Shown here: piece by piece, positions 891-57,350 of the stretch
Position numbering within the stretch: the stretch's first letter is position 1
How the letters are laid out: every line of letters starts with the position of its first letter
From: Heterodontus francisci
Lineage: Eukaryota
Reading direction: 5' to 3'
Length of the DNA stretch: 64,000 bases
NCBI RefSeq assembly: GCF_036365525.1
Contig: NC_090372.1
Span: 90,224,873-90,288,872 of the forward strand
The notes under the pieces: model-generated
Database searches by the model: none
Told to the model about the DNA's origin: nothing
The model's input: the letters and a program-made list of their open reading frames with translations, nothing else
Translations under genes and position numbers: made by a program

Positions 891-1168
891 GCTGCCACAT
901 ACTTTCCTTGCTGTGTCCCAGTGTCCTGTGAAGTTACGATTCTCTTCTTCCACTCAAGTGTAACATTCCTCCTTGTAGTTGTGCCGCACCTGGGTGAATA
1001 ATTTTAATTTTGCACATTCCAGACATAAGACTTAAATGTACCATAAAAGGCAAATACACAACAAAAATAAAACCATAGAACATCGAACATAGAACAGTAC
1101 ATCACAGTACAGGCCCTTCGGCCCACGATGTTGTGCCGAACATTTAACCTACTCTAAGATCAAACTAA

Positions 1169-4051
1169 CTACCTACCCTTCATTCTACTATCATCCATGT
1201 ACCGATCCAAGAGTCGCTTAAATGTCCCTAATGTATCTGCTTCTACTACCACCGCTGGCAGCGCATTCCACGCACCCACCACTCTCTGTGTAAAGAACCT
1301 ACCTCTGGCATCTCCCCGAAACCTTCCTCCAATCACCTTAAAATTATGCCCCCTGGTGATAGCCCTTTCCACCCTGGGAAAAAGTCTCTGACTATCCACT
1401 CTATCTATGCCTCTCATCATCTTGTACCCCTCTATCAAGTCACCTCTCATCCTTCTACGCTCCAATGAGAAAAGCCCTAGCTCCCTCAATCTTTCTTCGT
1501 AGGACATGCCCTCCAGTCCAGGCAGCATCCTGGTAAATCTCCTCTGCACCCTCTCTAAAGCTTCCACATCCTTCCTATAATGAGGCGACCAGAACTGAAC
1601 ACAATATTCCAAGTGTGGTCGAACCAGGGCCTTATAGAGCTGCAGCATAACCTCGCGGCTCTTAAACTCAATCCCCCTTTTAATGAAAGCCAACACACCA
1701 TACGCCTTCTTAACAACCCTATCAACTTGGGTGGCAACTTTGAGCGATCTATGGACATGGACCCCAAGATCCCTCTGTTCCTCCACACTACCAAGAATCC
1801 TGTCTTTAAGCCTGTATTCCGCATTCAAATTCGACCTTCCAAAATGAATCACTTCACACTTTTCCAGGTTGAACTCCATCTGCCACTTCTCAGCCCAGCT
1901 CTGCATCCTGTCAATGTCCCGTTGCAACCTACAACAGCCTTCCACACTATCCACAACTCCAGCAACCTTCGTGTCATCAGCAAACTTGCTAACCCAGCCT
2001 TCCACATCCTCATCCAAGTCATTTATAAAAATCACAAAGAGCAGAGGTCCCAGAACAGATCCTTGTGGAACACCACTGGTCACCGAGCTCCATGCTGAAT
2101 ACTTTCCATCTACTACCACCCTCTGACTTCTTTGGGCCAGCCAATTTTGTATCCAGAAAGCCAGCTTTCCCTGAATCCCATGCCTCCTTACTTTCTGAAT
2201 GAGCCTACCATGGGGAACCTTATCAAATGCCTTGCTAAAATCCATATACACCACATCCACTGCTCTTCCTTCATCAATGTGTTTTGTCACATCTTCAAAG
2301 AATTCAATAAGGCTTGTGAGGCATGACCTGCCCCTCACAAAGCCATGCTGACTGTCTCTAATCAAACCATGCCTTTCCAAATAATCATAAATCCTGTCTC
2401 TCAGAATCCTCTCCAATAATTTGCCCACTACCGACGTAAGACTGACTGGTCTATAATTCCCAGGGTTATCCCTATTCCCTTTCTTGAACAAGGGAACAAC
2501 ATTTGCCATCCTCCAATCATCCGGTACTACTCCAGTGGACAGTGAAGACGCAAAGATCATCGCCAAAGGCGCAGCAATCTCTTCCCTCGCTTCCCGTAAT
2601 ATCCTTGGGTATATCCCGTCTGGCCCTGGGGACTTATCTGTCCTCATATCATTCAAAATTTCCAGCACATCCTCCCTCTTAACCTCAACCTGTTCGAGCA
2701 TATCAGCCTGTTCCACGCTGTCCTCACAAACGACCAGGTCCCTCTCACTAGTGAATACTGAAGCAAAGTATTCATTTAGGACCTCCCCTACCTCCTCCGA
2801 CTCCAGGCACAAGTTCCCTCCACTATCCCTGATCGGCCCTACCCTCACTCTGGCCATCCTCTTGTTCCTCACATAAGTGGAGAATGCCTTGGGATTTTCC
2901 TTAATCCTACCCGCCAAGACTTTTTCATGTCCCCTTCTAGCTCTCCTAAGTCCATTCTTCAGTTCCTTCCTGGCTACCTTGTAACCCTCTAGAGTCCTGT
3001 ATGATCCTTGCTTCCTTAACCTTAAGTAAGCTTCCTTCTTCCTCTTGACTAGCTGTTCCACATCTCTTGTCATCCAAGGTTCCTTCACCCTACCATCCCT
3101 TCCCTGCCTCATCAGGTCAAACTTATCCAGCAGTCGCAGCAAGTGCTCCCTAAACAACCTCCACATTTCTGTCGTGCATTTCCCTGAGAACATCTGTTCC
3201 CAATTTATGCTCCCCAGTTCCTGCCTAATAGCATTGTAATTCCCCCTCCCCCAATTAAATATTTTCCCATCCCGTCTGCTCTTGTCCCTCTCCATGACTA
3301 TAGTAAAGGTCAGGGAGTTGTGATCACTATCACCGAAATGCTCTCCCACTGAGAGATCTGCCACCTGGCCTGGTTCGTTGCCAAGCACCAAGTCCAACAT
3401 AGTCTCCCCTCTAGTCGGCCTATCTACATATTGAGTCAGGAAACCTTCCTGGACACACCTGACAAAAACTGCTCCATCCAAACTATTTGCACTAAGGAGG
3501 TTCCAATCAATATTAGGGAAGTTGAAGTCACCCATGACAACAACCCTGTTACCTCTGCACCTTTCCAAAATCTGCCTCCCAATCTGCTCCTCCATGTCTC
3601 TGTTGCTATTGGGGGGTCTATAGAAAACTCCCAACAAAGTGACTGCTCCTTTTCTGTTTCTGACTTCCACCCATAATGACTCAGTAGACAAACCCTCCTC
3701 GATGACCTCCCTTTCTGCAGCTGTGATACTATCCCTGATTAAGAGTGCCACTCCCCCCCCCCCACCACTTTTACCCCCCTCCCTATTCCTTTTGAAACAT
3801 CTAAACCCCGGAACATCCAACATCCATTCATGCCCCTGTGATATCCACGTCTCCGTAATGGCCACAACATCGTAGCTCCAAGTACTGATCCATGCTCTAA
3901 GTTCATCACCCTTATTCCTGACACTTCTTGCGTTAAAATAGACACACTTCAACCCATCATACTGGCTGCAACTTTGCCCTGTCAACTGTCCAACCTTCCT
4001 CACAGACTCTCTGCACTCTGTATCTGCCTGTTCAACAGCTACCCCATCCAC
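1169..4051 (-). CDS. CR1 ORF2: APE endonuclease plus reverse transcriptase (960 aa, uninterrupted)
   Basis: EN motifs YFNARS, AITETW, GDFNFP, LDLVL, SDHN. RT motifs PGPDG, NYRPVSLTS, QHGF, YMDFSKAFD, GVPQGSVLGP, FADD. CR1-type C-terminus RPHLEYCVQFWSP. Start codon is GTG, and the frame stays open upstream to 4111. Confidence 0.95.
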   Translation of the reverse strand: MDGVAVEQADTECRESVRKVGQLTGQSCSQYDGLKCVYFNARSVRNKGDELRAWISTWSYDVVAITETWISQGHEWMLDVPGFRCFKRNREGGKSGGGGGVALLIRDSITAAEREVIEEGLSTESLWVEVRNRKGAVTLLGVFYRPPNSNRDMEEQIGRQILERCRGNRVVVMGDFNFPNIDWNLLSANSLDGAVFVRCVQEGFLTQYVDRPTRGETMLDLVLGNEPGQVADLSVGEHFGDSDHNSLTFTIVMERDKSRRDGKIFNWGRGNYNAIRQELGSINWEQMFSGKCTTEMWRLFREHLLRLLDKFDLMRQGRDGRVKEPWMTRDVEQLVKRKKEAYLRLRKQGSYRTLEGYKVARKELKNGLRRARRGHEKVLAGRIKENPKAFSTYVRNKRMARVRVGPIRDSGGNLCLESEEVGEVLNEYFASVFTSERDLVVCEDSVEQADMLEQVEVKREDVLEILNDMRTDKSPGPDGIYPRILREAREEIAAPLAMIFASSLSTGVVPDDWRMANVVPLFKKGNRDNPGNYRPVSLTSVVGKLLERILRDRIYDYLERHGLIRDSQHGFVRGRSCLTSLIEFFEDVTKHIDEGRAVDVVYMDFSKAFDKVPHGRLIQKVRRHGIQGKLAFWIQNWLAQRSQRVVVDGKYSAWSSVTSGVPQGSVLGPLLFVIFINDLDEDVEGWVSKFADDTKVAGVVDSVEGCCRLQRDIDRMQSWAEKWQMEFNLEKCEVIHFGRSNLNAEYRLKDRILGSVEEQRDLGVHVHRSLKVATQVDRVVKKAYGVLAFIKRGIEFKSREVMLQLYKALVRPHLEYCVQFWSPHYRKDVEALERVQRRFTRMLPGLEGMSYEERLRELGLFSLERRRMRGDLIEGYKMMRGIDRVDSQRLFPRVERAITRGHNFKVIGGRFRGDARGRFFTQRVVGAWNALPAVVVEADTLGTFKRLLDRYMDDSRMKGR

Positions 4052-4086
4052 TGATCCGTGGCTCCGGTTCCCATCCCCCTGCCAAA

Positions 4087-4215
4087 CTAGTTTAAACCCT
4101 CCCGAAGAGCTCTAGCAAACCTCCCGCCCAGGATATTGGTGCCCCTTCAGTTCAGATGCAACCCGTCCTTGTTGTACAGGTCCCACCTTCCCCAGAAGGT
4201 ATCCCAATGATCCAC
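4087..4215 (-). pseudogene. 3' remnant of CR1 ORF1 (SGNH esterase-like C-terminus)
   Basis: Hand translation WDLYNKDGLHLN*RGTNILGGRFARALREGLN*. The DGLH (DxxH) motif is typical of CR1 ORF1 esterase domains. One in-frame TGA at 4147-4149. Confidence 0.75.
4090..4099 (-). promoter_or_regulatory. Candidate -1 programmed ribosomal frameshift site (G GGT TTA AAC)
   Basis: Two overlapping X_XXY_YYZ heptamers in the ORF1 register, just before the ORF1 TAG. The -1 frame is ORF2. Same motif at 5312-5321 (+) and 40356-40365 (-). Confidence 0.55.
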
Positions 4216-4616
4216 ATAATTGAAGAATATCTGCATACTATGGGCTTCTAATTATCTGACTGTGAAAAGATGCAAACTATTATGCATTTGGAATCTGTAT
4301 TCATTTCTCTGCTAACTGTTATGTGAAAAGACATGTAACTGCAATTTAATGATCTTTGTGAAAAATAGGAAAATATTGGCTGTATTGCCAACTAGAAATA
4401 TTACACCAATAATTATGATGAGCTGCTGCAGAAGCAAAGACGTGTCATGGTGTAATAGTTGAAAAACCATGACAACAGCACAGATTTCCTCACTATTCCT
4501 GCATTCGTTTCCAAACATGTGCAAGGCAAACCTGGCAGCCAGAAGTTAGAGCAGTTACACGTTGGAGTCACCTTTGCATTTAAAGGACCACGCCAAAAAC
4601 CAAGGATGGCAGAGGG

Positions 4617-4750: not shown

Positions 4751-6437
4751 TGAACAATCAGTCTCCCAGTTAGCCAGGGCCTTCAAGGCCTTGTGCACAG
4801 CCAAAGTCATCCACACTGAAAGGGCAATCATATCCTGCAGTCAGGATGCTAACGCAGAGGTGGCACCGCGTAGGAACATCCGCAAGCATTTCCAAAAAGC
4901 ACCATGACACAAATGGGTCTGCATGGGTGACACAACAATGTAGAAAGGCCGAAATCAAAATCGTCTTCACTAACATGTGTGTTGCTTTTACTGTGTGAAT
5001 GAAGTGTGCCAGCATGTACCGATCATGGCTCCTCCCATTGCATCATTGGCCTTTCAGAACTGACATTGAATGGAATAACATCATTGTTATGCCAGTATCA
5101 CTCATGTGCGTCTCCACGGATGAAGTAACATGGACAATGGCTCAGTCTGCTGCTGCCAGTAATGGTGGATGCAAAGATGTTGCCGATGCAGACTGCTGCA
5201 CAACAGGTGAATGAGGGTGCTGTGTGGCTTGACGAGCCCACAGTGATTCCTATGGAACTGGTTCCTATGGACCGATATCCTAGGGGGAGTATTTGCTAGA
5301 GTGGTTGGGGAGGGTTTAAACTAAAATGGCAGGGGGATGGGAACCTTTGCAAGGAGTCAGAGGAGGGGGGATCAAAGACAAGAATAAAAGACAGTAAGGG
5401 GAACAAGAAAAGTGATAGGAAGAGAAATCAAGGGCCAGAATCAAACAGGGCCACAGTGAAAAATAGTGGGAAGGGGACAAGTAATGTCAAAAAGACAAGC
5501 CTTAAGGCTTTGTGCCTTAATGCGTGGAGCATTCGCAATAAAGTGGATGAATTAATCGCGCAAATAGATGTAAACAGGTATGATCTCGTCGGGATTACGG
5601 AGACATGGCTGCAAGGTGACCAGGGATGGGAAATGAACATCCAGGGGTATTCAGTATTTAGGAAGGACAGACAAAAAGCAAAAGGTGGTGGAGTTGCATT
5701 GCTGATTAAAAAGGAAATTACCACACTAGTGAGGAAGGATATTAGCTCTGATGATGTGGAATCTGTATGGGTAGAGCTGAGAAACATTAAGGGGCAAAAA
5801 ATGTTAGTGGGGGTTGTATATAGACCCCCAAACTGTAGTGGCGATGTTGGGAATAGCATTAAACAGGAAATTAGAGGCGCATGCGATAAAGGAACATCTG
5901 TAATTATGGGTGACTTTAATCTGCATATAGATTGGGCAAATCAAATTAGTCACAATACCGTAGAGGAGGAATTCTTGGAGTGTATACGCGATGGTTTTCT
6001 GGACCAATACTTGAGGAACCAACTAGAGAACAGGCCATCCTAGACTGGGTATTGTGTAATGAGAGAGAAATAATTGACAATTTAGTGGTGCGAGACCCCT
6101 TAGGGATGAGCGACCATAATATGATAGAATTCTTCATCAAGATGGAGAGTGACGTAGCTGATTCTGAGACTAGGGTCCTGAATCTTCGTAAAGGAAACTA
6201 CGAGGGTATGAGGTGCGAGTTGGCTATGACAGATTGGGAAACATTACTTAAAGGGATGATGGTGGATAGGCAATGGCAAACATTTAAAGAGCGCATGGAT
6301 GAATTGCAACAATTGTTTATCCCTGTCTGATGCTAAAGTAAAACGGGAAAGCTGGCCAAACCATGGCTTACAAGGGAAATTAGAGATAGCATTAGATCCA
6401 AGGAAGAGGCATATAAATTTGCCAGAAAAAACAACAA

Positions 6438-7784
6438 CAGTGATTGGGAAACTATTGGAAAAAATTCTGAAGGACAGGATTAATCTCCACTCGGAGAGGC
6501 AGGAAATAATCAGGGATAGTCAGCACGGCTTTGTCGGGGGAGATCATGTCTAACTAACTTGATTGAATTTTTCGAGGAGGTGACTAGATGTGTAGATGAG
6601 GGTAAAGCAGTTGATGTAGTCTACATGGACTTCAGTAAGGCTTTTGATAAGGTCCCACATGGGAGATTGGTTAAGAAGGTAAGAGCCAATGAGATCCAGG
6701 GCAATTTGGCAAATTGGATCCAAAATTGATTTGGTGGCAGGAAACAGAAGGTGATGGTCGAGGATTGTTTTGGTGAGTGGAAGCCTGTGACCAGTGGTGT
6801 ACCGCAGGGATCTTTGCTGGGACCCTTGCTATTTGTAGTGTACATTAATGATTTAGACATGAATATAGGAGGTATGATAAGTAAATTCGCAGATGACACG
6901 AAAATTGGTGGTGTCGTAAATAGTGAGGAGGAAAGCCTCAGATTACAGGACGATATAGTTGGGCTGGTAAGATGGGCGGAGCTGTGGCAAATGGAATTTA
7001 ATCCTGAGAAGTGTGAGGTGATGCATTTTGGGAAGACTAACAAGGCAAGGAATATACAATGGATGGTAGGACCGTAGGAAGTACTGAAGGTCAGAGGGAC
7101 CTTGGTGTACTTGTCCATAGATCACTGAAGGCAGCAGCACAGGTAGATAAGGTGGTTAGGAAGGCATATGGGATACTTGCCTTTATTAGCCGAGGCACAG
7201 AATATAAGAGCAGGGAGGTTATGATGGAGCTGTATAAAATGCTAGTTAGACCACAGCTGGAGTACTGTGTACAGTATTGGGCACCACACTATAGGAAGAA
7301 TATGATTGCACTGGAGAGGGTGCAGAGGAAATTCGCCAGGACATTGCCTGGGCTGGAGCATTTCATCTATGAAGAGAGAGTGGAAGGGCTAGGGTTGTTT
7401 TCCTTCGAGCAGAGAAGGCTGAGGGGGGAACTGATTGAGGTATACAAAATTATGAGGGGCATTGATAGGTTAGATAGGAAGAGGGGTCAAAAACCAGGGG
7501 GCATAGATTTAAGGTAAGGGACAGGAAGTTGAGAGGGGATTTGAGGAAAACTTTTTTCACCCAGAGGGTGGTTGGAATCTGGAACACACTGCCTGAAATG
7601 GTGGCAGAGGCAGGAACCCTCACAACATTTAAGAAATATTTAGATGAGCACTTGAAACGCCCTGGCATATGGCCAAGTGATGGAAAATGGGACTAGAATA
7701 GTCAGGTGCTTGATGGCCGGCGCAGACACGATGGACTGAAGGGCCTGTTTCTGTGCTGTATAACGCTTGGCTCTATGACTCTAT
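6438..7784 (+). mobile_element. Nested 5'-truncated CR1 LINE (third subfamily)
   Basis: RT pieces 6751-7077 (GVPQGS, FADD) and 7059-7517, own 3' UTR and CTCTATGACTCTAT tail. The host frame (ARKNN|RPEDWEQ) resumes at about 7785. AACAG at both junctions. Confidence 0.85.
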
Positions 7785-8656
7785 AACAGACCTGAGGATT
7801 GGGAACAGTTTAGAATTCAGCAAAGGAGGACCAAGGGATTGATTAAGAAGGGGAAAATAGAGTACTTGCGGGGAACATAAAAACTGACTTTAAAAGTTTC
7901 TATAGGTATGTGAACAGAAAAAGATTGGTGAAGACAAATGTAAGTCCCTTACAGTCAGAAACAGGGGAATTTATTATGGGGAACAAAGAAATGGCTGACC
8001 AACTAAATGCATACTTTGGTTCTGTCTTCACAAAGGAGGACACAAATATCATACCACAAATGTTGGAGAACACAGGGCTTAGTGAGAGAGAGGAACTGAA
8101 GGAAATCAGTATTAGTAGAGAAATGATGTTGGGGAAATTGATGGGATTGAAGGCCAATAAATCCCCAAGGCCTGATGGTATGCATTCCAGAGTATTTAAA
8201 GAAGTGGCCCCAGAAATAGTGGATGCATTGGTGGTCATCTTCCAAGATTCCATAGAATCTTGAAACAATTCCTACAGATTGGAGGGTGGCTAATGTAACC
8301 CCACTCTTTAAAAAGGGAGGTAGAGAGAAAGCAGGGAATTATAGACCAGTCAGCCTGACGTTGGTAGTGGGGAAAATTCCATTATCAAAGATTTTATAGC
8401 AGAGCACTTGGAGAACAGTGATAGAATCAGGCAGAGTCAGCATGAATTTATGAAAGGGAAAGCATGCTTGACTAATCTACTAGAATTCTTCGAGGATGTA
8501 ACTAGTAGAGTTGATGAGGGGGAGCCAGTGGATGTGGTTTATTTGGACTTTCAGAAGGCTTTTGACAAAGTCCCACATAAGAGATCAGCATGTAAAATTA
8601 AAGCACATGGGATTGGGGGTAGTGTATTGCGATGGATAGAAAATTGGTTGGCAGAT

Positions 8657-9003
8657 GTGGCGCAGTGGTTAGCACCGCAGCCTCACAGCTCCAGTGACCC
8701 AGGTTCAATTCTAGGTACTGCCTGTGTGGAGTTTGCAAGTTTTCCCTGTGTCTGCTTGGGTTTCCTCCGGGTGCTCCGGTTTCCTCCCACAGCCAAAAGA
8801 CTTGTAGGTTGATAGGTAAATTGGCCATTATAAATTGCCCCTAGTATAGGTAGGTGGTAGGGGAATATAGGGACAGGTGAGGATGTGGTAGGAATATGGG
8901 ATTAGTGTAGGATTAGTATAAATGGGTGGTTAATGATCGGCACAGACTCGGTGGGCCGAAGGGCCTGTTTCAGTGCTGTATCTCTAAAGATAAAGATAAG
9001 GAT
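8657..9003 (+). mobile_element. HE1-type tRNA-derived SINE with CR1-like 3' tail
   Basis: A box TGGCGCAGTGG, B box GGTTCAATTCT, tail GGGCCGAAGGGCCTGTTTCAGTGCTGTATCTCTA(AAGATA)n. Splits the host RT at WLAD|GKQRV. Confidence 0.9.
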
Positions 9004-10067
9004 GGGAAACAAAGAGTAGGGAAAAATGGGTCTTTTTCTGAATGGCAGGCAATGACTAGTGGGGAACCGCAGGGATCGGTGCTAGGACCCCAGCTATTCA
9101 CAATATATATTAATGATTTAGATGAGGGAACTAAATGTAATATCTCCAAATTTGCAGATGACACAAAACTGGATGGGAGGGTGAGTTGTGAGGAGGATGC
9201 AGAGAGGCTTCAGGGTGATTTGGACAAGTTGTGTGAGTGGGCTAATGCATGGCAGATGCAGTATAATGTGGATAAATGTGAGGTTATCCACTTTGGTAGC
9301 AAAAACAGGAAGGCAGATTATTATCTGAATGGTTATAAACAAAGAGAGGGGAATATGCAACGAGACCTGGGTGTTCTCGTATACCAGTCGCTGAAGGTAA
9401 GCATGTGCTAAAAAAGGCAAATGGTATGTCGGCCTTCATAGCGAGAGGATTCGAGTACAGAAGCAGGGATGTCTTGCTGCAATTATACAGGGCGTTGGTG
9501 AGGCCACACCTGGAATATTGTGTGCAGTTTTGGTCTCCTTATCTGAGGAAGGATGTCCTTGCTATAGAGGGAGTGCAGCGAAGGTTTACCAGACTGACTC
9601 CTGGGATGGCAGGACTGACGTATGAGGAGAGATTGAGTCAGTTAGGATTATATTCGCTGGAGTTCAGAAGAGTGAGGGGGAGATCTCATAGAAACGTATA
9701 AAATTCTAACAGGACTTGACAGGGTAGATGCAGGAAGGATGTTGTCAATGGTGGGGGAGTCCCAGAACCAGGGGTCATAGTCTAAGGGTACGGGGTAAAC
9801 CTTTCAGGACTGAGATGAGGAGAAATTTCCTTACCCAGAGAATGGTGAACCTGTGGAATTCGCTACCACAGAAAGCAGTTGAGGCCAAAATATTGTATGT
9901 TTTCAAGAAGGAGTTAGATATAGCTCTTGGGTCCAAAGGGATCAAAGGGTATGGGGAGAAAGTGAGAACAGGTTACTGAGTTGGATGATCAGCCATGATC
10001 ATAATGAATGGCGGAGCAGACTCGAAGGGTCGAATGGCCTACTCCTGTTCCTATTTTGTATGTTTCT

Positions 10068-12396: not shown

Positions 12397-13197
12397 CAAA
12401 GAACAAAGAACAAAGAACAGTACAGCACAGGAGCAGGCCATTCGGCCCTCCAAGCGTGCGCCGATCTTGATGCCTGCCTAAACTAACACCTTCTGCACTT
12501 CCGGGGCCCATATCCCTTTATTCCCTTCCTATTTATATATTTCTCAAGATGTCTCTTAAACGTCGCTATCGTATCTGCTTCCACCACCTTCCCTGGCAGC
12601 AAGTTCCAGGCACTCACCACCCTCTGTGTAAAAAACTTGCCTCGCACATCCCCTCTAAACTTTGCCCCTCGCACCTTAAACCTATGTCCCCTAGTAACTG
12701 ACTCTTCCACCCTGGGAAAAAGCTTCTGACTATCCACTCTGTCCATGCCGCTCATAACTTTGTAAACCTCTATCATGTTGCCCCTTCACCTCCGTCGTTC
12801 CAGTGAAAACAATCCGAGTTTTTCCAACCTCTCCTCATAGCTAATGCCCTCCAGACCAGGCAACATCCTGGTAAACCTCCTCTGTACCCTCTACAAAGCC
12901 TCCACGTCCTTCTGGTAGTGTGGCAACCTGAATTGCACGCAATATTCTAAGTGTCGCCTAACTAAGGTACTGTACAGCTGCAGCATGACTTGCCTATTTT
13001 TATACTCTATGCCCCGACCGATGAAGGCAAGCATGCCATATGCCTTCTTGACTACCTTATCCACCTGCGTTGCCACTTTCAGTGACCTGTGGACCTGTAC
13101 GCCCAGATCTCTCTGCCTGTCAATACTCCTAAGGGTTCTGCCATTTACTGTATACCTCCCACCTGCATTAGACCTTCCAAAATGCATTACCTCACAT
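12397..13197 (-). mobile_element. 5'-truncated CR1 LINE
   Basis: ORFs 12483-12776 and 12891-13187 match the CR1 ORF2 C-terminus. (TTCTTTG)n tail. ATCAA at both junctions. Confidence 0.9.
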
Positions 13198-16169: not shown

Positions 16170-16490
16170 CTGACTGTCACAGTACCAAAATGGCTCTTAT
16201 CAAAGTCACAAATGACAACCTATGTGACTATGATAAAGGCAAACTATTCCTCCTCGCCTTTCTTGACCTGTTTGCAATTTTGGCATGGTTGACCACAGCA
16301 TTCTTCTCCAAAGCCTCTTCACCATTGTCCAGCTGGGTGGGACTGCATTCACCTGTTTCCATTCCTATCTATCTAGTTGTAGTTAGGGAATCACCTGCAA
16401 TGGCTTTTCTTCCCACTTCTGCAGCACTATCTCTGATGTCCCCCAAGGATCTATCCGTGGCCCCTCCTATTTCTCATCTACCTGCTTGAT
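16170..16490 (+). mobile_element. L2-like LINE RT fragment
   Basis: HSTKMALIKVTNDNLCDYDKGKLFLLAFLDL resembles the L2 HSTETAL..VTNDIL..LLDLSAAFD block. Confidence 0.7.
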
Positions 16491-16536
16491 AAGGAGCATG
16501 TTCGTCATGTCCAAAAATGTATTAACCTCTCAGCGT

Positions 16537-16715
16537 TGTTGTATGATTGCCTTTAAGAGTGATGTCCCTTTAAGATCGCAGTATGCGAATAAGCTAAGCA
16601 CCAGGATGCAGTCATGTGACTACATGATCATAGTCACTATGCAACTGTAACACCTAGAGAAAGGTTCTGTAAATAGTTTGCTCTGTACTGTACATAATCG
16701 TTTAGCTGTTAATAG
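16537..16715 (+). mobile_element. Partial solo LTR of the Gypsy family at 19057-25398
   Basis: TGTTGTATGATTGC..AAGAGTGATGTCCCTTTAAGA is the reverse complement of the LTR ends at 19299 and 25398. Cut by the CR1 at 16716. Confidence 0.8.
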
Positions 16716-17355
16716 ATGCATGCTTGCCTACATCGGTCGGGGTATAGAGTATAAAAATTGGCAAGTCATGCTGCAGTTGTACAGAACTTTAGTTAGGCCA
16801 CACTTAGAATATTGCGTGCAATTCTGGTCGCCACACTACCAGAAGGACGTGGAGGCTTTGGAGAGGGTACAGAGGAGGTTTACCAGGATGTTGCCTGGTC
16901 TGGAGGGCATTAGCTATGAGGAGAGGTTGGATAAACTCGGATTGTTTTCACTGGAACGACGGAGGTGGAGGGGCGACATGATAGAAGTTTACAAAGTTAT
17001 AAGCGGCATGGACAGAGTGGATAGTCAGAAGCTTTTTCCCAGGGTGGAAGAGTCAGTTACTAGGGGACATAGGTTTAAGGTGAGAGGGACAAAGTTTAGA
17101 GGGGATGTGCGAGGCAAGTCCTTTACACAGAGGGTGGTGAGTGCCTGGAACTTGCTGCCGGGGGAGGTGGTGGAGGCAGGTACGATAGCGACGTTTAAGA
17201 GGCATCTTGACAAATACATAAATAGGATGGGAATAGAGGGATACGGTCCCCGGATGTGCAGAAGGTTTTAGTTTAGGCAGGCATCAAGATAGGCGCAGGC
17301 TTGGAGGGCCGAATGGCCTGTTCCTGTGCTGTACTGTTCTTTGTTCTTTGTTCTT
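16716..17355 (+). mobile_element. 5'-truncated CR1 LINE, same subfamily as 12397-13197
   Basis: ORF 16678-17271 (RPHLEYCVQFWSP...). TTCTTTG-repeat tail. Confidence 0.9.
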
Positions 17356-25499: not shown

Positions 25500-27249
25500 A
25501 GGCATGAAGTCGGAATAGGTTACTGGTGAGATTTCCCTCATTGTGGCAGAGTAATAAAACTGTGAAACTTCCACCCACCCCTCCGACCCTGGCTTAACCT
25601 GAACCATTTTCCTGCGTCAGGTTTCTTAGACATGCATGGTGGGATTCCTGCCATCAAGAAGAAGCATGTTGCTGCATCTGATTGCAATGGTTTGCTGACC
25701 TCCCACCCCAGGAACCACAGGAATTCAAGCTGGAACCAATTGTAGCTGGATCCTCCCTCAAAATCTTCCCTCCAACATCCTGATTGCTCCTAATATCCAT
25801 CCAAAATATTGCAGATTTTTAGTACCACAGATTTAAGGACATAATTTCCATGGGGTCACTGCATATTCAGGGCAAGCACCCATGTCTGAACGACCCCAGC
25901 TGGAATTACATTCAACTTGCACCACTTGTTTTGCCTAAATTCTATTCTTACTGTGGAATGCTCCATTATGGTATGGGAGTTAATAGGAAGCTCCAACTGC
26001 AGTAGTTTGTTACAGCAGTGGTGACGCAAGTGTGCAGAGTTTAAAAGTACAGTATGTGTAAACACTCCAGGTGGGAGTCATTGTGAGACTTGCCTGAGTT
26101 TGGTCACTTGGATTCATGGTATTATAGTCACAAAATGTCACTTTAAACACTGTTGGTCAAATATGTTCAGTGCTTTTTTTGCCACAGCCAGGTGACCTGT
26201 TTCTGTTACCACTCTTCAGCATAACTTTAAGAAGACTAGTTCAATATATTTTACTACTCAATGGAGATGCATCCACATTAAGGGCCTTGTGCACTGTCAG
26301 AAAAACAAACTTTCTTTTGCAATTTGATCCCAAAAAACTAAAATAAATCCTGAAATCCAATATAATAAAAAGGAATTTAATTCATTCAGTCCCCTTTCAG
26401 CAGTGTCCTTGGACATAACCCTTTTATCAACGCTGTTTTACAGGCATCTGTTGTTTTATGATTTGTCAGCTTCTCTGAGTTTTGTAAGTCGGCGTGTGTG
26501 ACTTTTACACTGTACAGCGCATGTGCGTTCAATGTTTCTTCCCTCAGCCATTGCACTTAGTAAAAATGTGCAGTGTACGTCTGTTACTTTGTAACCGTGG
26601 GTGCCTTTTACATGTTCCTCCACTGTGAGGACAAAATGAAGTGGTTATCTGTTGTATATCAGTGTCTGAATCTAGCGATTAAGGTGGTCCTTGTATTTCC
26701 TTGTGCTAGGTCAGTAGGTGGCCCTGCAGCGACAGGTACAACATGGGGTGGGGTTGGTGACTGCCTGGGCCTACATGCTTTGTGGCAGATTAATAATGAT
26801 TGCAGTGAGACGAATGGGTGCTACTAATGTGCTATAACCCTGAGAGATGTTTCCATCATCCATCATCATCCATGCAAGCCCTCGTTGTTGCTGGCCATTC
26901 ATTTAGCATGGCTAGAGATCTGTGTCAGTTCAGACTGCTGAGCCACAATGGGGTTGCTGAAGCTTTATGTTCTCTGGTCTTTTTTGAACTTCAAAAGCTG
27001 CTTGTCAGTCTTAACATGGCTACATGAAATATTGATGCTGAGCTATTGTGCTCTATTTGCAGGCAGACCCTCTGAGGTCTAATTTCCTGCTGATCAAGGC
27101 GACTTCAAGCAGGCACTTGAGCCAGTAGGGACTGCGGCACCTGTAATTCCACCTGCACTTGCTCCTCTTTGCACGTGTCCTGTGCTTCATTCAGCACCTA
27201 CAACTCATAAACTGAACCCCATAGAGTGCATTTATCCATGACTGCTTGT

Positions 27250-27535
27250 CACAGATTTAAGGTGATTGGTAGAAGGATTAGAGGGGACATGAGGAAACAC
27301 TTTTTCACCCAGAGAGTGGTGGGTGTCTGGAATTCACTGCCTGAATCAGTGGTGGAGGCAGAAACCCTCAACTCATTTAAAAGGTACCTGGACATGCACC
27401 TGAAGTGATGTAACCTGCAAAGCTATGGACCAGGTGCTGGAAGGTGGGATTAGATTGGGCTGCTAGTTTTTTTTTAGCTGGTGCAGACACAATGGACTAA
27501 ATGGCCTCCTTCTGTGCCGCAACTTTTCTATGGCT
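27250..27535 (+). mobile_element. CR1 3' end fragment
   Basis: HRFKVIGRRIRGDMRKHFFTQRVVGVWNSLP followed by a CR1 3' UTR. Confidence 0.85.
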
Positions 27536-28193: not shown

Positions 28194-29100
28194 TTTTTTT
28201 TTTATTCATTCATGGGATGTGGGCGTCGCTGGCCAGGCCAGCATTTATTGCCCATCCCTAATTGCCCTTGAGAGGGTGGTGGTGAGCTGCCTTCTTGAAC
28301 CACTGCAGTCCATTTGGGGTAGGTACACCCACAGTGCTGTTAGGAAGAGAGTTCCAGGATTTTGACCCAGCGACAGTGAAGAAACGGCGATATAGTTCCA
28401 AGTCAGGATGGTGTGTGACATGGAGGGGAACTTGCAGGTGGTGGTGTTCCCATGCGTTTGCTGCCCTTGTCCTAGTTGGTAGAGGTCGCTGGTTTGGAAG
28501 GTGCTGTCTAAGGAGCCTTGGTGCATTGCTGCAGTGCATCTTGTAGATGGTAAACACTGCTGCCACTGTGCGTCGGTGGTGGAGGGAGTGTATGTTTGTG
28601 GATGGTGTGCCAATCAAGCGGGCTGCTTTGTCCTGGATGGTGTCGAGCTTCTTGAGTGTTGCTGGAGCTGCACCCATCCAGGCAAGTGGAGAGTATTCCA
28701 TCACACTCCTGACTTGTGCCTTGTAGATGGTGGACAGGCTTTGGGGAGTCAGGAGGTGAGTTACTCGCTGCAGGATTCCTAGCCTCTGACCTGCTCTTGT
28801 AGCCACGGTATTTATATGGCTACTCCAGTTCAGTTTCTGGTCAATGGTAGCCCCTAGGATGTTGATAGTAGGGGATTCAGCGATGGTAATGCCATTGAAT
28901 GTCAAGGGGAGATGGTTAGATTCTCTCTTGTTGGAGATGGTCATTGCCTGGCACTTGTGTGGCCGAATGTTACTTGCCACTTATTAGCCCAAGCCTGGAT
29001 ATTGTCCAGGTCTTGCTGCATTTCTACATGGACTGCTTCAGTATCTGAGGAGTCACGAATGGTTCTGAACATTGTGCAATCACCAGTGAACATCCCCACT
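28194..29100 (-). mobile_element. 5'-truncated LINE, Zenon-like branch of the CR1 group
   Basis: ORF 28258-28980 with post-RT region LNWSSHI, VRSVMEYS, HSLHHRRTVAAV. ATGAATGAATAAAAAA tail. Clade assignment tentative. Confidence 0.8.
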
Positions 29101-32911: not shown

Positions 32912-35192
32912 ATACGAACATACGAATTAGGAGCAGAAGTAGGCCATTCAGCGCCTTGAGCCAGCTCCGCTATTCAATGAGATCATGGCTGATCTGTTTG
33001 TGTTTCGAATTCCACACTCCCATTTACCCCCGATACCCCTTGATTCCCTTGCCTAACAAGAAACTATCTATCTCCGCCTTAAAAATATTCAATGACCCCA
33101 CCTCCACCGACGTCTAAGGCAGAGAGTTCTAAAGTCGCACAACCCTCTCAGAGAAAACATTTCTTCTCATCTCTGCCCTGAAAGGGTGTCCCCTAATTTT
33201 AAAACAGTGCCCCATAGTTCTGGACTCACCCACAAGAGAAAACATCCTCTATACATCCACCTTATCAAGGCCATTCAGAATCTTATAAACTTCAATCAAG
33301 TCTCCCCTCACTCTTCTAAACTCCAGTGAAAACAAGCCCAGTCTGTCCAACCTTTCCTCTTAAGACAACCCACTCATTCCAGGTATCAATCGAGTAAACC
33401 TCCTCAGAACTGCCTCCAACGCATTTACATCCTTCCTTAAATAAGGAGCCCAAAATAACTGAAGGATAACATCCTTACTTATATTTTCAATTCCTCTCAT
33501 AATAAAGGATAGCATTCCATTAGCCTTCTTTATTATTTGCTGTACCTGCATACTAACTTTTTGTGCATCCTTCACGAGAACACCTAGATCCCTCTGCACC
33601 TTGGAATTTTGCAGTCATTCTCCATTTAAGTAATACTCTGCTTTTTTATTCTTCCTGTCAAAGTGAACAACTTCACATTTTCCCACATTATACTCCATCT
33701 GCCAGATTTTTGCCCACTCACTCAACCTATCTATATCAGTCTGCAAGCTCCTTATGTCCTCTTCTCAACATACTTTCTTACCTATCTCTGCAAATTTAGC
33801 TACCAAGCCATCGCTCCCCTCATCTAAGTCATTGATATAAATTGTAAAAATTTGAGGCCCCAAAACAGGCCCCTGCGGGACTCCACTGGTCACATCCTGC
33901 CAATCAGAATAGGACCCATTTATGCATAATCTCTGTTTTTTGCCAGCCAACCAATCTTCTATCCATACGAATATGATACTCCTACACCATGAGCTTCTAC
34001 TCTGCAAAATAACCTTTTATGTGGCACCTTGTCAAATGCCTCTGGAAATCCAAGTACTGTATGTCAACAGGCTCCCCTTTCTCCACAGCATATGTCACTC
34101 CTTCAAAGAACTCCAGAAAATTGGTTAAACATGATTTCCCTTTCACAAAACTATGCTGACTATTCCCAATTACTTTGAGTTTTTCTAAGTGCCCAGCTAC
34201 AACCGCCTTAATGATTCTTTCGAACACTTTCCCCATGACAGACTTCAAGCTAACTGGCCTATACTTACCTGTTTTCTGCCTTGCACCCTTCTTGAATAGA
34301 GGGGTTATATTTGCTACTTTCCAGTCTGACGGAACCTTTCCAGAATCTAGTGAATTTTGAAAAATTAACACCAACGCATCTATTACCTCACTAGCCACTA
34401 GAATGACCCTAGAATGAAGTCCACCAGGATCTGGGGACTTGTCAGCCTGCAGCTCCATCAGTTTGCTCAGTACTGCTTCCCTGGTGATTGTAATTTCACC
34501 AAATTCCTCTTTTCCACCTCCTGATTTACAGACATTGCAGGAATGTTTTGTGTATCCTCGGTAGTGAAGACAAAATAAAAATATTTCTTCATTTCATCTG
34601 CCATTTCCTTATTATCTACTATTAGCTCCCCATTCTCACTTTCCTTACTCTTTTCATTTTTAACTACCTGTAGAAACTCTTTCTATCCGTTTTTACATTT
34701 CTAGCTAGCTTCCTCTCATACACTAATTTCTTTCTCCTGATTAACCTTTTAGTCATTCTCCGCTGTTCTTTATATTCTGACCAATAATCTGAACTGCCAC
34801 TCATCTTTGCACAATGATATGCCTTTTCCTTAAGTTTGATGCTTTCCTTAACTTCTTCAGTTAACCTTGGATGGTGGGTCCTCCCCTTAGAAATTTTTCT
34901 TTATAGTAGGAATATACTTATTCTGAAATATCCCCTTAAATATCTGCTACTGCTTCTCTATTGATCTATCTCCAAGCCTAGTAACCCAGTTCACTTCAGC
35001 TAGCTCAGTTTTCATACCCACATAGTTGCCCTTATTCAAGTTTAAAATACTAGTCTTAGACCCACTCTTCTCTCTTTCAAACTGCATATAAAATTCAATC
35101 ATATTGTGGTCACTGCTACCTCGAGATGCCTTTACTCTGAGGTCATTAATAAATCCTGTCACATTACACAATACCAAGTCTAATACCAGTCC
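32912..35192 (-). mobile_element. Older CR1 LINE, heavily mutated ORF2
   Basis: ORF pieces 34947-35204 (SSDHN), 33997-34458, 33765-34007 (GVPQG) and 33360-33599. TTCGTATG tail. Confidence 0.9.
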
Positions 35193-39000: not shown

Positions 39001-40465
39001 CTACGATGCTATCATTGCCCCTTCTTTTGTGAAGATATCCACAAAGTATTCATTCAGAACCTTATCCACATTCTTTGTCTCCTCACATAGGTTATCTTTT
39101 TGGTACCTAATCGGCCCTACTCTTTCTTTAGTTATCCTTTTGCTCTTCATGGACTTAAAAAACATCTTTGGATTCTCCTTGCTTTTACCTGCCAATATTT
39201 TTTCATGACCTCTCTTCGCTTTCCTAATTTCCCTTTTAATTTCACCCCTACACTTTCTGTACTCTTCTAGGCTTTCTGCAATATTAATCTCTCGGTATCT
39301 GACATAAGCTTTCTTTTTTTGCCTTATTTTAGTCTCAGTGCACCTCGTCATCCAGGCGGCTTTAGATCTGGCTGTCCCACCCTTTTTCCTTGTGGCAACA
39401 TATTTAACCTGAACCCTTTGAGTCCCCTTCTAGGATGCCTCCCATCGCTCTGACACCGATTTACCTTCAATGGCTGTTTCCAGTCCACTTTTGCCAAATC
39501 TCTTCTCAGCCTAGTAAGATTGGCCTTCCCTCAATTTAGAACCTTCACTTCTATCTAATCTTTGTCCTTTTCCATAGCTATGCTAACTTTAACTGAATTA
39601 TGATCATGACCACAAATATGTCCTCCCACTGCTACTCCTTCCACCTGCTCAACTTCATTCCCTATAACTAAATCCAGAATTGCTCCTGTCCTCTTGTTGG
39701 GCTTGCCACATACTGGCTAAAAGGTTTTCCTGATGCAATTTAGGAAATCTGTGGCCTCTGTGCCTTGACCGTATCCCAGTTAATGCTAGGGTAATTGAAA
39801 TCTGCCACGATTTCTGCTTTATTGATTTTACATTTGTCAGAAATTTGCCAAGAATTTGCTCTCCTATCTCCCTCAGACTGTTTGGACGTCTGCGTACATT
39901 CCCAGCAGTGTGATTGCCCATTTTTTGTTTCTTAGCTCAAAGCATATAGCCTCATTTGATTATCCCTCTAACATATCATCCCTTCTCACATCTGTAATTA
40001 TTTCTTTCATCAATATTACCACTCCGCCTCCTTTTTTATTCCCCTATCTCACCTTAAAACCTTGTAACCAGGAACGTTAAGCTGCCATTCCTGTCCCTTT
40101 CTAAGCCATGTTTCAGTAATAGCTGAAAAATCATACTTCCACGTGTCAATCTGTGCCCTCAGCTCATCTGCCTTATTCACTCTACTCCTTTAGATACTTA
40201 GGTATATATCATTAAGCACAACCAGACTCCTTTTTTGTCCGACGCTTGTTTGCTCTGCCTTCCAAACTTGCTTGCTAATTTTCTGCCTTTCATTTCCAGC
40301 TCTGCTTTTCTCCCTTCTGAATCTATGCTCACCTTCCCATCTCCCTGCCTCGCTAGTTTAAACCCTCCCCAACAGCACTAGCAAACCTGCCTGCAAGGAT
40401 ATTGGTCCCGGCCCTGTTGAGGTGCAACGCGTCCAGCCTGTACAGATCCAAACTTCCCCAAATAT
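39001..40465 (-). mobile_element. Old CR1 fragment (ORF1 end, EN, linker)
   Basis: ORF 39001-39351 (IRKAKRGHEK..KENPK..VLNEYF). ORF1/ORF2 junction GGGGAGGGTTTAAACTAG at 40370-40353. Confidence 0.85.
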
Positions 40466-53273: not shown

Positions 53274-53912
53274 ATCACAGAAGCCAGACTTCAGCCAATT
53301 TGATTCACTCCAGATGATATCAAGAAACAACTGAGTGCATTGAATATGGCAAAAGCTATGGTCTCTGACAACATCGCAGCTGTGGTGCTGAAAATTGTGC
53401 TGCAGTACAACAAACATCTCTAGTCAAGTTATTCCAGTACAACTACAACATTGGCATCTACCCAACAATGTGGAAAATTGCCCAGGTATGTCTTGTTCAC
53501 AAAAGCAGGACAAATCCAATCCAGCCAATTAACAGCCCATCAGTCTACTTTCGATCATCAGCAAAGTTGCTGGAAGGTGTTGTCGGCGGTGCTATCAAGC
53601 GGCACTTGCCCAGCAATAACCTGCTCACTGATGCTCAGTTTGAGTTCCACCAGGGTCACTCAGCTCCTGACTTCTTCACAGCTCTGGTCCAATCATGGAT
53701 GAAAGAGCTGAATTCCAGAAGTGAGGTGAGAGTGACATCAAGGCAGCATTTGACCGAGTGTGTCATCAAGTAAAATTGAGGTCAATGGGAATCAGGGGGA
53801 AGATACTCCACTGGTTAGAGTCATACCTAGCACAAAGGAAGATGGCTGTGGCTGTAGGAGGCCAATTATCTCAGCCCCAGGACATCGTTGCAGGACATCG
53901 TTGCAGGACATC

Positions 53913-53977
53913 AGCCAGCACAGACACGATGGGCCGAAGGTCCTGTTTCTGTGCTGTATAACTCTATGACTCTATGA
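53913..53977 (+). mobile_element. CR1 extreme 3' tail insertion
   Basis: GGGCCGAAGGTCCTGTTTCTGTGCTGTATAACTCTATGACTCTATGA, as at 7725-7784. Confidence 0.75.
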
Positions 53978-55497
53978 GTTCCTCAGAGTATTGTCGTAAG
54001 CCCAACCTGCTTCAGTTGCTTCATCAATGACCTTCCCTCCAACATAAAGTCAGAAATGGGAATGTTCCCTGATGATTGCACAGTATTCAGTTCCATTCAC
54101 AACTCTTCAGATACTCAAGCAGTCCAGGCCCACATGCAGCAACATTCCGGCTTGGGCTGATAAGTGGCATCACACAAGTGTCAGGCAATGACCATCTCCA
54201 ACAAGAGAGAATCTAACCATCTCCCCTTTCCATTCAAAGGCATTATCATCGCTGAATCCCCCACCATCAACATCCTGGGGGTTACCATTGAACAGAAACT
54301 TAACTGGACCAGCCATTTAAATACTGTGGCGATAAGAGCAGGTCAGATGATGGATACTCTGTGGCGAGTAACTCCGCTCCTGACTCCCCAAACTCTTTCC
54401 ACCATTTACAAGGCACAAGTCAGGAGTGTGATGGAATACTCTCCACTTGTCTGGATGGGTGCAGTTCCAACAACACTCAAGAAGCTCGATACCATCCAGG
54501 ACAACATAACCCATTTTATCGGCACCCCATTTACTACCTTAAGTCTTCACTCCAACCACTACTGACACACAGTAGTCGCAGTGTGTACCAACCACAAGAT
54601 GCACTGCAGCAACCTGCCAGCACTTCTTTTACAGCAGCTTCTAAACCCGCAACCTCCACTACTTAGAAGGACAAGGCAAGAGGTACATGGGAACACCACC
54701 TGCAAGTTCTCCTCCAAGTTACGTACCATCCTGATTTGGAAATATATCACCATTCCTTCACTGTTGCTGGGTCAAAATCTTGGAACTCCCTCCTTAATAG
54801 CACTGTGGGTGCACCTACAACACATGGATGGCAGCGGTTCAAGAAAACAGATCACCACCATCTTCTCAAGGGCAATTAGGGATGGGTGATAAATGCTGGC
54901 CTTATCAGTGACACCTACATCCCATGAACAGATTTTAAAAAATTCACAGTTTTGCCTTTCGCAATGTATGTTGACAGAAATTTGTTACATGCTTGGTGGA
55001 GCATCACACAGGAAGAATGTACAACATCCTAACAACAGTTCATGTACTTTCAAATGCACAGGCATGTCCATGTTTCACCACAGATCTCTGTATAGCTGTC
55101 CTGCCAATGCCTTTTCCTGTGTCCCATTAAATGTGGCATACAGCAAGCACACTGCCAACTGAAGTTCTGCATAGATCACAGACTGATATAAGGCAGTTGC
55201 AGATGGGCCCATTGCTTAGTGGGGAGACCGCCAAGTAAAATCTGGTGGCCTCCCAGCGGGCTTGGAGGGGATGCTCCTATTCGGGCACTCTTTAGTGCAG
55301 GTAGGGGCCCCCCAGTGGCACTTACAGCCCCTGTGGCAATGGCACCACCTGCCCTCGCCAACAACCCCCCCCCCCTCCCCTCCTTACCAGGGGCTGTCTG
55401 ACTGGCCCAGTGCCCCCATGCCCCACTTAGCTGGTTGTGAGGGCACTGTCCATTCATTGTATCCTTTTCTTCCATGTGCAGTCCCAGAAGTGGCCAC

Positions 55498-56907: not shown

Positions 56908-57250
56908 GAGTATTTTGCTCTTGTAGAGACATGACATTCCCTTAATAAATCCATGCCTTTATAAATGATGGTTAATACTGCCCTTCAGAACTTTTCTCCA
57001 ATAATTTTCCCACCAACAAGTTAGGCTGACTGGCTTGTAATTACTCGGTCTATCCCCTTCCCCCTTTTTTAACAACGGTACAATGTTAGCTGTCCTCCAT
57101 TCCTCTGGCACCACACCTGTAGCCAGAGAGGATTGGAAAGCGATGGTTAGAGTCTCTGCTATTTCTTCCCTAGCTTCTCTTAACAGCCTAGGATATATTT
57201 CATCCAGGTTTGGTGATTTATCTACTTTCAAAGATGCTAATACCCTTACT

Positions 57251-57350
57251 AAAATAAAAACAAGAAATGCTGGAAATACTCAGCAGGTCTGGCAACAACT
57301 GTGGAGAGAGAAGCAGAGTTAATGTTTCAGGTCAGTGACTCTTCATCAGA
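57251..57350 (-). mobile_element. ~100-bp Penelope-type mini insertion with hammerhead-like core and TSD
   Basis: Minus strand CTGATGA-AGAGTCACTGACCT-GAAACATTAACT...TTTTTATTTT. AATACCCTTA duplicated at 57239-57248 and 57350-57359. Confidence 0.75.

Follow-up and report, generated by a model that had tools for sequence, protein, structure and literature searches.

An ordinary truncated CR1 copy in Heterodontus francisci carries, at the junction of its two open reading frames, a real and deeply conserved signal of the recoding type; the frameshift itself is a prediction from sequence comparison. The copy lies in a 64,000-nt stretch of DNA (the window). Its signal comprises a slippery heptamer, U_UUA_AAC, the ORF1 stop codon directly behind it, and a run of five G 10 nt downstream. 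Programmed -1 frameshifting at the heptamer, which would join ORF1 to ORF2 in a predicted fusion protein, is in our judgment the probable function of the junction. Papers are cited below by PMC number, for the portion of each text that was available.

The CR1 Copy and Its ORF1/ORF2 Junction

Judged by its identity to a fuller family copy, L002 (96.6% over 1,732 nt, the match beginning at 4225), the copy at 1074..4225 on the minus strand belongs to a young family of CR1 LINEs whose ORF1 is of the esterase type. The best 40 of 1,988 first-look candidates among the genome matches, the window copy itself excluded, stand at 98% identity. The 5' truncation of the copy, at about 4225, has spared some 45 codons of ORF1 (4087..4225, minus strand), the end of an SGNH esterase that reads ...ALREGLN-stop and whose homologues carry PF13472. 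A premature TGA lies in this remnant at 4149-4147 (minus strand). With ORF1 so reduced and prematurely stopped, the window copy cannot use the signal itself and is a fossil of it. In L002, ORF1 is 311 aa long and has CxxC pairs (zinc finger) and the GDS and DGLH esterase motifs. At the level of the family, ORF1 has a CxxC zinc finger, a coiled coil and an SGNH esterase, of which the window copy keeps only the last 45 codons. The named ORF1 homologues nearest to this family come from sharks and rays. A protein labelled Pseudomonas aeruginosa at NCBI (P0006) is 73% identical to ORF1 and ends EGLN; it is probably host DNA in a bacterial record.

The ORF2 frame (1169..4111, minus strand) runs for 980 codons from stop to stop and has Pfam matches to an APE endonuclease (Exo_endo_phos, PF03372, residues 59-264) and a reverse transcriptase (RVT_1, PF00078, residues 545-784). 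The motif YFNARS begins at residue 58 and is followed by TETW, which is matched to the QET motif in an alignment with the human LINE-1 endonuclease chain (a weak match, E 0.006). Inside the endonuclease, a run of about 12 G at 3763-3752 (minus strand) encodes five consecutive Gly and leaves the frame intact. The 3' UTR (1074..1168, minus strand) ends, as CR1 elements do, in a hairpin and a short tandem-repeat tail without poly(A). No target-site duplication of at least 5 nt was found in the flanks tried around the copy. The zinc-finger/leucine-zipper and SGNH esterase ORF1, the APE-RT ORF2, the 3' hairpin and the short tandem tail are all shared with vertebrate canonical CR1, subgroup 7, ORF1 type IVB (PMC4120745, PMC13343379). 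For placement within canonical CR1, an endonuclease tree of 16 sampled elements, in place of an RT tree, and the closeness to named vertebrate homologues were available.

On the minus strand ORF1 ends GAG GGT TTA AAC TAG, and ORF2 lies in the -1 frame, open from 4111, as the sequence-only reading had described. Two overlapping heptamers are found here, G_GGU_UUA at 4093..4099 and U_UUA_AAC at 4090..4096, the latter being the predicted shift site. This is the arrangement of a -1 frameshift site, an X_XXY_YYZ heptamer in the ORF1 frame with the second ORF in -1. The ORF1 stop is directly 3' of the heptamer (4087..4089, minus strand); it is TAG here and TAA or TGA elsewhere in the junction sets. 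The G5 run at +11 to +15 (4075..4079, minus strand) is a candidate non-structural stimulator, conserved at synonymous positions. From the stop onward there is a variable hydrophilic linker (3941..4089, minus strand), which is open in the -1 frame and has no Met in the window-copy family. Upstream, a TAG in the ORF2 frame (4112..4114, minus strand) stands five codons before the heptamer and limits where ORF2 can be entered. The corresponding distance is five codons in 21 of 47 junctions and one or two codons in 11 of 47. Most shark lineages retain this TAG (T at the third position in 28/30, GCT or ACT then AG), which may be a second constrained element, one that is not common to the bird-like elements.

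The window contains two more CR1 junctions. One is divergent (5315..5336, plus strand), with the heptamer at 5315-5321, TAA, G5 and an endonuclease at 41% identity. The other is decayed (40341..40362, minus strand), with the heptamer at 40362-40356, TAG and a G-run with one change. They belong to further 5'-truncated copies from other families (5271-7654, plus strand, and 40463-39007, minus strand), in which no more of ORF1 than its last codons is left, together with the junction. All three CR1 copies of the window are truncated no more than about 140 nt 5' of the slip site. Other LINE ORF2 fragments of varied age are found at 7847-9949, 12513-13196, 16279-17241, 27223-27402, 28318-29021, 33036-35186, 53420-54520 and 56926-57252, and the 64-kb stretch looks repeat-rich.

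Conservation of the Heptamer

Three samples of junctions were drawn without using the heptamer motif; the copies in them are related, and the counts are not independent trials. The first sample covered 1.2 Mb of arbitrary genome stretches and the window, with the esterase minus its last 14 residues as query, and gave 30 matches. TTTAAAC is exact in 24 of the 30; four have one substitution, one has one deletion and one has no junction. The last Leu is encoded by TTA in 27/29 cases, against 3/104 at four other conserved Leu columns, and the base before it is T in 28/30, though the codon there encodes G, A, D, T, I or V. In the second sample, the query was a distant protein ending in KN, and 92 of 150 ORF1 matches were taken. 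Ten of the 92 were excluded because their frame stops or breaks ahead of the junction; the remaining 82, which form seven clusters, reach it, 78 with exact TTTAAAC and four with one base off. The third sample came from foreign contigs, where 44 loci yielded 19 junctions, 12 nearest to bird or turtle proteins and 7 from distant lineages. Here 17 of 19 have the exact heptamer, one has G_UUA_AAC and one U_UUA_AAU. Endonuclease identity among the sampled lineages is only 33-45%.

The codon before Leu varies widely. It is GGT, AGT, GCT, ACT, GAT, GTT, ATT, TGT, CAT, TAT, TTT or TCT, and its final U is constant; the foreign junctions have GCT, TGT, CAT, TAT, TTT, TCT and TCG. TCG is found only in the one G_UUA_AAC case, and G_UU(A) has been given as a natural exception among slippery heptamers (PMC5009743). 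In these alignments a varying codon with a fixed final U is the signature of U_UUA_AAC. From the elements' own codon usage, an exact match to the heptamer would be expected in about 3%; it is observed in 15 of 16 elements, which are related, so the comparison is not a p-value. These 16 are the elements with at least 130 open ORF2 codons, a filter that dropped 31 of 47. The heptamer is thus conserved beyond the need of the protein, as is expected of a frameshift site. Free synonymous variation of the heptamer codons, which would have spoken against the -1 shift predicted by the sequence-only reading, was not found in either own-genome sample or the foreign junctions, and the conservation at synonymous positions lends the prediction support.

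The sequence-only reading had also described a tandem slippery site. Both heptamers are indeed present in the window copy, but G_GGU_UUA is found in 41/82 own-genome junctions, in 0/38 copies of the largest family sampled and in 0/19 foreign junctions. The tandem heptamer was rejected as a conserved signal on the last two counts. G_GGU_UUA is lineage-restricted and possibly a minor slip site. Polymerase slippage was rejected, the runs of three T and three A being too short for it.

Covariation at ORF1 C-Termini

ORF1 ends in Leu-Asn in named CR1 homologues from sharks, rays, coelacanth, frogs, turtles, squamates and birds. For a wider view, 150 representatives at 50% identity were taken, of which 90 carry the esterase motif at a distance of 18-50 residues from the C-terminus. 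Among these 90, 61 end in Asn (LN 45, GN 10, KN 3, SN 2, EN 1) and 29 do not. The search profile was built from 30 proteins, 28 of them ending in LN, and favours LN matches. The residue before LN has a codon that cannot end in U in 1/33 distinct ends, compared to 12/33 and 10/33 at the next two positions. Before GN, 8/10 residues are Gln, whose codons exclude a final U but allow a final G, and none of the ten is incompatible with G. The contrast between LN and GN in the preceding residue has a Fisher p of 2.7e-6, uncorrected for kinship. In seven further distant proteins, xKN occupies roughly this position and another 2-12 residues precede the stop.

At the protein level, ends in xLN, QGN and xKN fit U_UUA_AAC, G_GGA_AAC and A_AAA_AAC, respectively, and as a pattern the fit is strong. 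These are three of the four heptamers named as most shift-prone on mammalian ribosomes (PMC5009743). The DNA of GN- and KN-ending elements was searched for as well. Two scans of viral contigs with alignments gave nothing, a genome-contig scan gave 18 loci, of which one had a LINE ORF2 and no heptamer, and none of 32 pattern matches had an esterase. A LINE on a bacterial MAG contig (L197:2084-5427) has an esterase-like ORF1 and ORF2 in the -1 frame, with no heptamer at the stop; it is likely host DNA and represents a different junction type.

The G-Run and the Downstream Region

Downstream of the heptamer, positions +11, +12 and +13 are all G in 44 of the 47 junctions, out of 50, in which the heptamer could be anchored. 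A run of at least four G within +8 to +16 is seen in 35/38 junctions and in 3.2% of background windows, and G5 in 72/82 own-genome junctions. Both synonymous positions of the run are G in 15/16 elements, where codon usage predicts 18%.

Conservation does not extend to a downstream fold. The sequence-only reading had seen no convincing downstream pseudoknot, and the larger set bears this out for stems: local folds of the 90 nt downstream are no better than those of shuffles (mean z +0.2, 1/44 junctions below -2), and consensus folds of the region are empty, while the 3' hairpin used as a control folded. The best common helix, of 4 bp, is found in 22%. A classical stem-loop or pseudoknot 5-9 nt downstream was accordingly not found by the stem folds that were scored, which bear on pseudoknots only indirectly. 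For the window junction, z was -1.8 and -1.0 in single folds, and the second window copy has a downstream hairpin at z -2.7 that is not common to other copies. Four GG tracts, as would be needed for a two-tier quadruplex, are present in 45% of junctions and 19% of background windows, which is suggestive only. Long-range pairing with the 3' tail, of the luteovirus type, found no general support, own tails being no better than foreign tails (p 0.56, 19 elements). Tail pairing outdid shuffled queries for the most part in cluster 1, besides some isolated copies; it was no better than shuffled queries in the window-copy family, in clusters 0, 2 and 4 and in the bird-like elements. The tail strand is, moreover, already paired in its own hairpin, at -18 to -32 kcal/mol.

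Since the G-run is conserved and neither a conserved fold nor general tail pairing was found, the stimulator may be the run itself, acting as a protein-binding site or as a small G-structure at the mRNA entrance of the ribosome. If the shift does occur, we give this proposal an even chance. In the older L066 family (L066, L225-L244, L357-L386), the G-run is now an unstable poly-G tract, and the distance from the heptamer to the next anchor ranges from 13 to 45 nt. The -1 register is found in 12/24 copies of this family chosen on ORF1 alone, the modal tract length being in register, and in 1/12 copies chosen by likeness to an expanded copy.

The Linker, Start Codons and Other Routes to ORF2

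The linker between the ORF1 stop and the endonuclease varies in sequence and in length (138-207 nt in most scored copies). It has 13, 249 and 358 stops in the -1, 0 and +1 frames, respectively (3,026 codons, 64 copies); in the first sample the numbers were 16, 54 and 95 (807 codons, 14 copies). The first ATG of ORF2 in the window copy is at 3823, which is residue 97 counted from the stop, 77 counted from GTG 4051, and 91 codons past the junction. It follows both YFNARS and TETW, in agreement with the sequence-only reading. No Met precedes the endonuclease motif in the window-copy family, in clusters 2 and 4, in the window copy at 5315, in L151, L154 and L155 or in the common form of the L066 family. 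Between the upstream -1-frame stop and the heptamer, neither an AUG nor a near-cognate codon is found in 32/47 junctions. In cluster 0 there is a Met four residues before the endonuclease motif; codon 9 there is ATG in 20, ACG in 10 and ACA in 3 of 38 copies, and the ATG looks like the product of CpG decay of ACG.

In termination-reinitiation, ribosomes that have terminated on ORF1 would restart nearby in the ORF2 frame, using an AUG if present and otherwise any codon, and a free ORF2 protein would be made. We regard this route as unlikely. In cluster 1, the most intact family in the genome, with seven copies that have 987-988 open ORF2 codons, the junction reads U_UUA_AAC_UAA_UG in 31/31 copies, a stop-start of the SART1 type. 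This very young family (L281, L283, L296, L307, L309, L311, L313), in which the heptamer and an overlapping UAAUG occur together, offers a natural test of frameshifting versus reinitiation. Among the bird-like loci, an in-frame ATG follows the stop by two bases in 4/12 (L156, L158, L159, L162), and L181 has TAATG. An adjacent stop is a constant feature, translation of the linker is expected under either model, and ORF2 of L1 is thought to start independently of AUG (PMC5009743). However, an AUG next to or overlapping the ORF1 stop in the ORF2 frame is absent in the window-copy family and present in cluster 1 and these five bird-like loci; its position is not shared among lineages, and in most it is missing altogether. 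The claim that AUG initiation is ruled out therefore holds for the window-copy family and several others, and does not extend to the one young family with UAAUG or to some of the bird-like elements. Because the AUG-bearing families all retain the heptamer and the G-run, we read the AUGs at the junction as tolerated linker residues or a second route, and not as a shared mechanism; reinitiation may operate as well where an AUG stands at the stop. Reinitiation would, moreover, leave unexplained the fixed third-position U in a varying codon, the invariable choice of TTA for Leu and the Gln before GN. Nor does it account for the seven distant proteins that have xKN at the same place and a stop only 2-12 residues later.

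Two further explanations dispense with recoding, and both appear very improbable. ORF2 might be produced independently of ORF1. Translation could begin at a near-cognate codon of the linker, such as the in-frame GTG 4051, or by internal initiation, or the template could be a spliced or shortened RNA; the motif would then serve as branch point, splice acceptor or promoter element. AACTAA/G of the main shark lineage does resemble a branch point, and TGGCAG/G there an acceptor, but CAG is absent in the L066, L058 and L105 lineages, there is no pyrimidine tract, and the linker sequence, including the GTG, is not conserved. The register of the motif with the ORF1 frame and stop would also be a coincidence. 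GT..AG ends were found in 0 of the 15 joints listed, of 36, in four runs, which is weak evidence against splicing, these being contigs whose RNA origin is a guess. Alternatively, the heptamer could be a by-product of protein constraint, with Leu-Asn at the C-terminus of ORF1 overlapping a Phe-Lys-Leu start of ORF2. ORF1 does end in LN from sharks to turtles, squamates and birds, and dual coding of L-N and F-K would force TTTAAAY. Such overlap needs an upstream start, but in 11/47 junctions a stop closes the -1 frame one or two codons ahead of the heptamer, and the 32/47 mentioned above have no start-like codon there; related esterases also end in GN, KN or other residues. The odds against this account are about as long as those against separate production of ORF2, and -1 frameshifting at U_UUA_AAC remains the preferred reading.

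The Proposed Mechanism

According to the frameshift reading, most ribosomes would stop at the ORF1 stop codon and release the 311-aa ORF1 protein. In a minority, the tRNAs for Leu and Asn would slip in tandem from UUA-AAC to UUU-AAA, and these ribosomes would read ...E-G-L-N and then, in the -1 frame, L-V-W-Q-G-D-G-N. The predicted product is a fusion of ORF1, endonuclease and reverse transcriptase of about 1,284 aa (311 + 973). Slippage may be stimulated by the G-run at the ribosome entrance, helped by a pause at the adjacent stop.

A lineage with a natural in-frame ORF1-ORF2 fusion was not found: there were 2 cases among 560 candidates, both apparently single gene models, which is weak evidence either way. 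A stingray protein named as a hydroxyacid oxidase 2 isoform (P0270) has a CR1 esterase joined in frame to the endonuclease via F-K-L; it is probably one copy with an indel and is mis-named. Some canonical CR1 lineages have lost ORF1 (PMC13343379), so a fusion is not needed for the function of ORF2.

A broader and more tentative proposal, which we hold at somewhat less than even odds, is that esterase-type CR1 elements across vertebrates, and their relatives in more distant animals, make reverse transcriptase as a fusion, swapping U_UUA_AAC, G_GGA_AAC and A_AAA_AAC among lineages. The shift would be driven not by an RNA fold but by the five-G motif 10 nt downstream, binding a protein or forming a G-structure.

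Relation to Known Systems

The -1 frameshifting of coronaviruses, at the same U_UUA_AAC, and of retroviral gag-pol (PMC5009743) shares with the CR1 junction the heptamer, the register and the output of much structural protein with little fused polymerase. Unlike these systems, CR1 has a fixed G-run in place of a conserved stem or pseudoknot, its host element is of the non-LTR type, and no protease is known to cut the fusion. In the -2/-1 frameshift of PRRSV nsp2, nsp1beta and PCBP act on an unstructured C-rich motif, which works only at a spacing of 9-11 nt (PMC4937337). In both PRRSV and CR1, a short motif in the primary sequence lies 10 nt beyond the slip site, and local structure is lacking. 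However, the CR1 motif is G-rich, the heptamer is different and no binding protein is known, so that the likeness is in geometry only.

Among non-LTR elements, the APE-type TRE5-A and TRE3-A of Dictyostelium are stated to need a -1 frameshift for ORF2 (PMC5911963), and the idea of such a shift is therefore not new for this class. They differ from CR1 in clade and kingdom, and the legend that makes the statement names no slippery site or stimulator (PMC5911963). SART1 couples its ORFs by a UAAUG stop-start (PMC2699510, PMC3708506). SART1 and mammalian L1 share with CR1 a bicistronic LINE RNA, and the UAAUG is found in one CR1 family as well. In SART1 and L1, however, ORF2 is a separate protein made by reinitiation, and no conserved slippery heptamer is described for them in the available parts of PMC3708506, PMC2699510 and PMC5009743.

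No report of a CR1 frameshift was found in the open literature searched; the earliest CR1 papers, which are outside that search, may mention an overlap or a shift. None of the papers searched combines the words CR1, slippery and retrotransposon. In the text available from the CR1 papers PMC4120745 and PMC13343379, the translation of ORF2 is not addressed and the word frameshift is absent. The second of these, a 2026 vertebrate-wide CR1 survey, does not use the word translation in that text either. The 2016 review of frameshifting does not contain CR1 in its first 300,000 characters (PMC5009743), and the accessible portions of PMC4120745, PMC3905857, PMC4255032, PMC6609765, PMC11835228 and PMC13405545 do not describe a CR1 shift.

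Significance

How two-ORF LINEs translate ORF2 from one RNA has been described as unclear (PMC3708506), and the worked cases use reinitiation. CR1 is abundant in the 6.0-Gb genome of H. francisci and is the dominant repeat of birds, making up 11.8% of the chicken assembly (PMC11835228). If the prediction is true, the fusion would set the ratio of ORF1 to ORF2 products, tie the enzyme to the ORF1 particle and move the annotated start of ORF2. Assays of CR1 retrotransposition would then have to keep the junction intact, the signal being about 25 nt long. The 2016 review knew stimulation by G-quadruplexes only from synthetic constructs (PMC5009743). A fold-free G-run stimulator in CR1, if true, would be a new kind of natural -1 stimulator.
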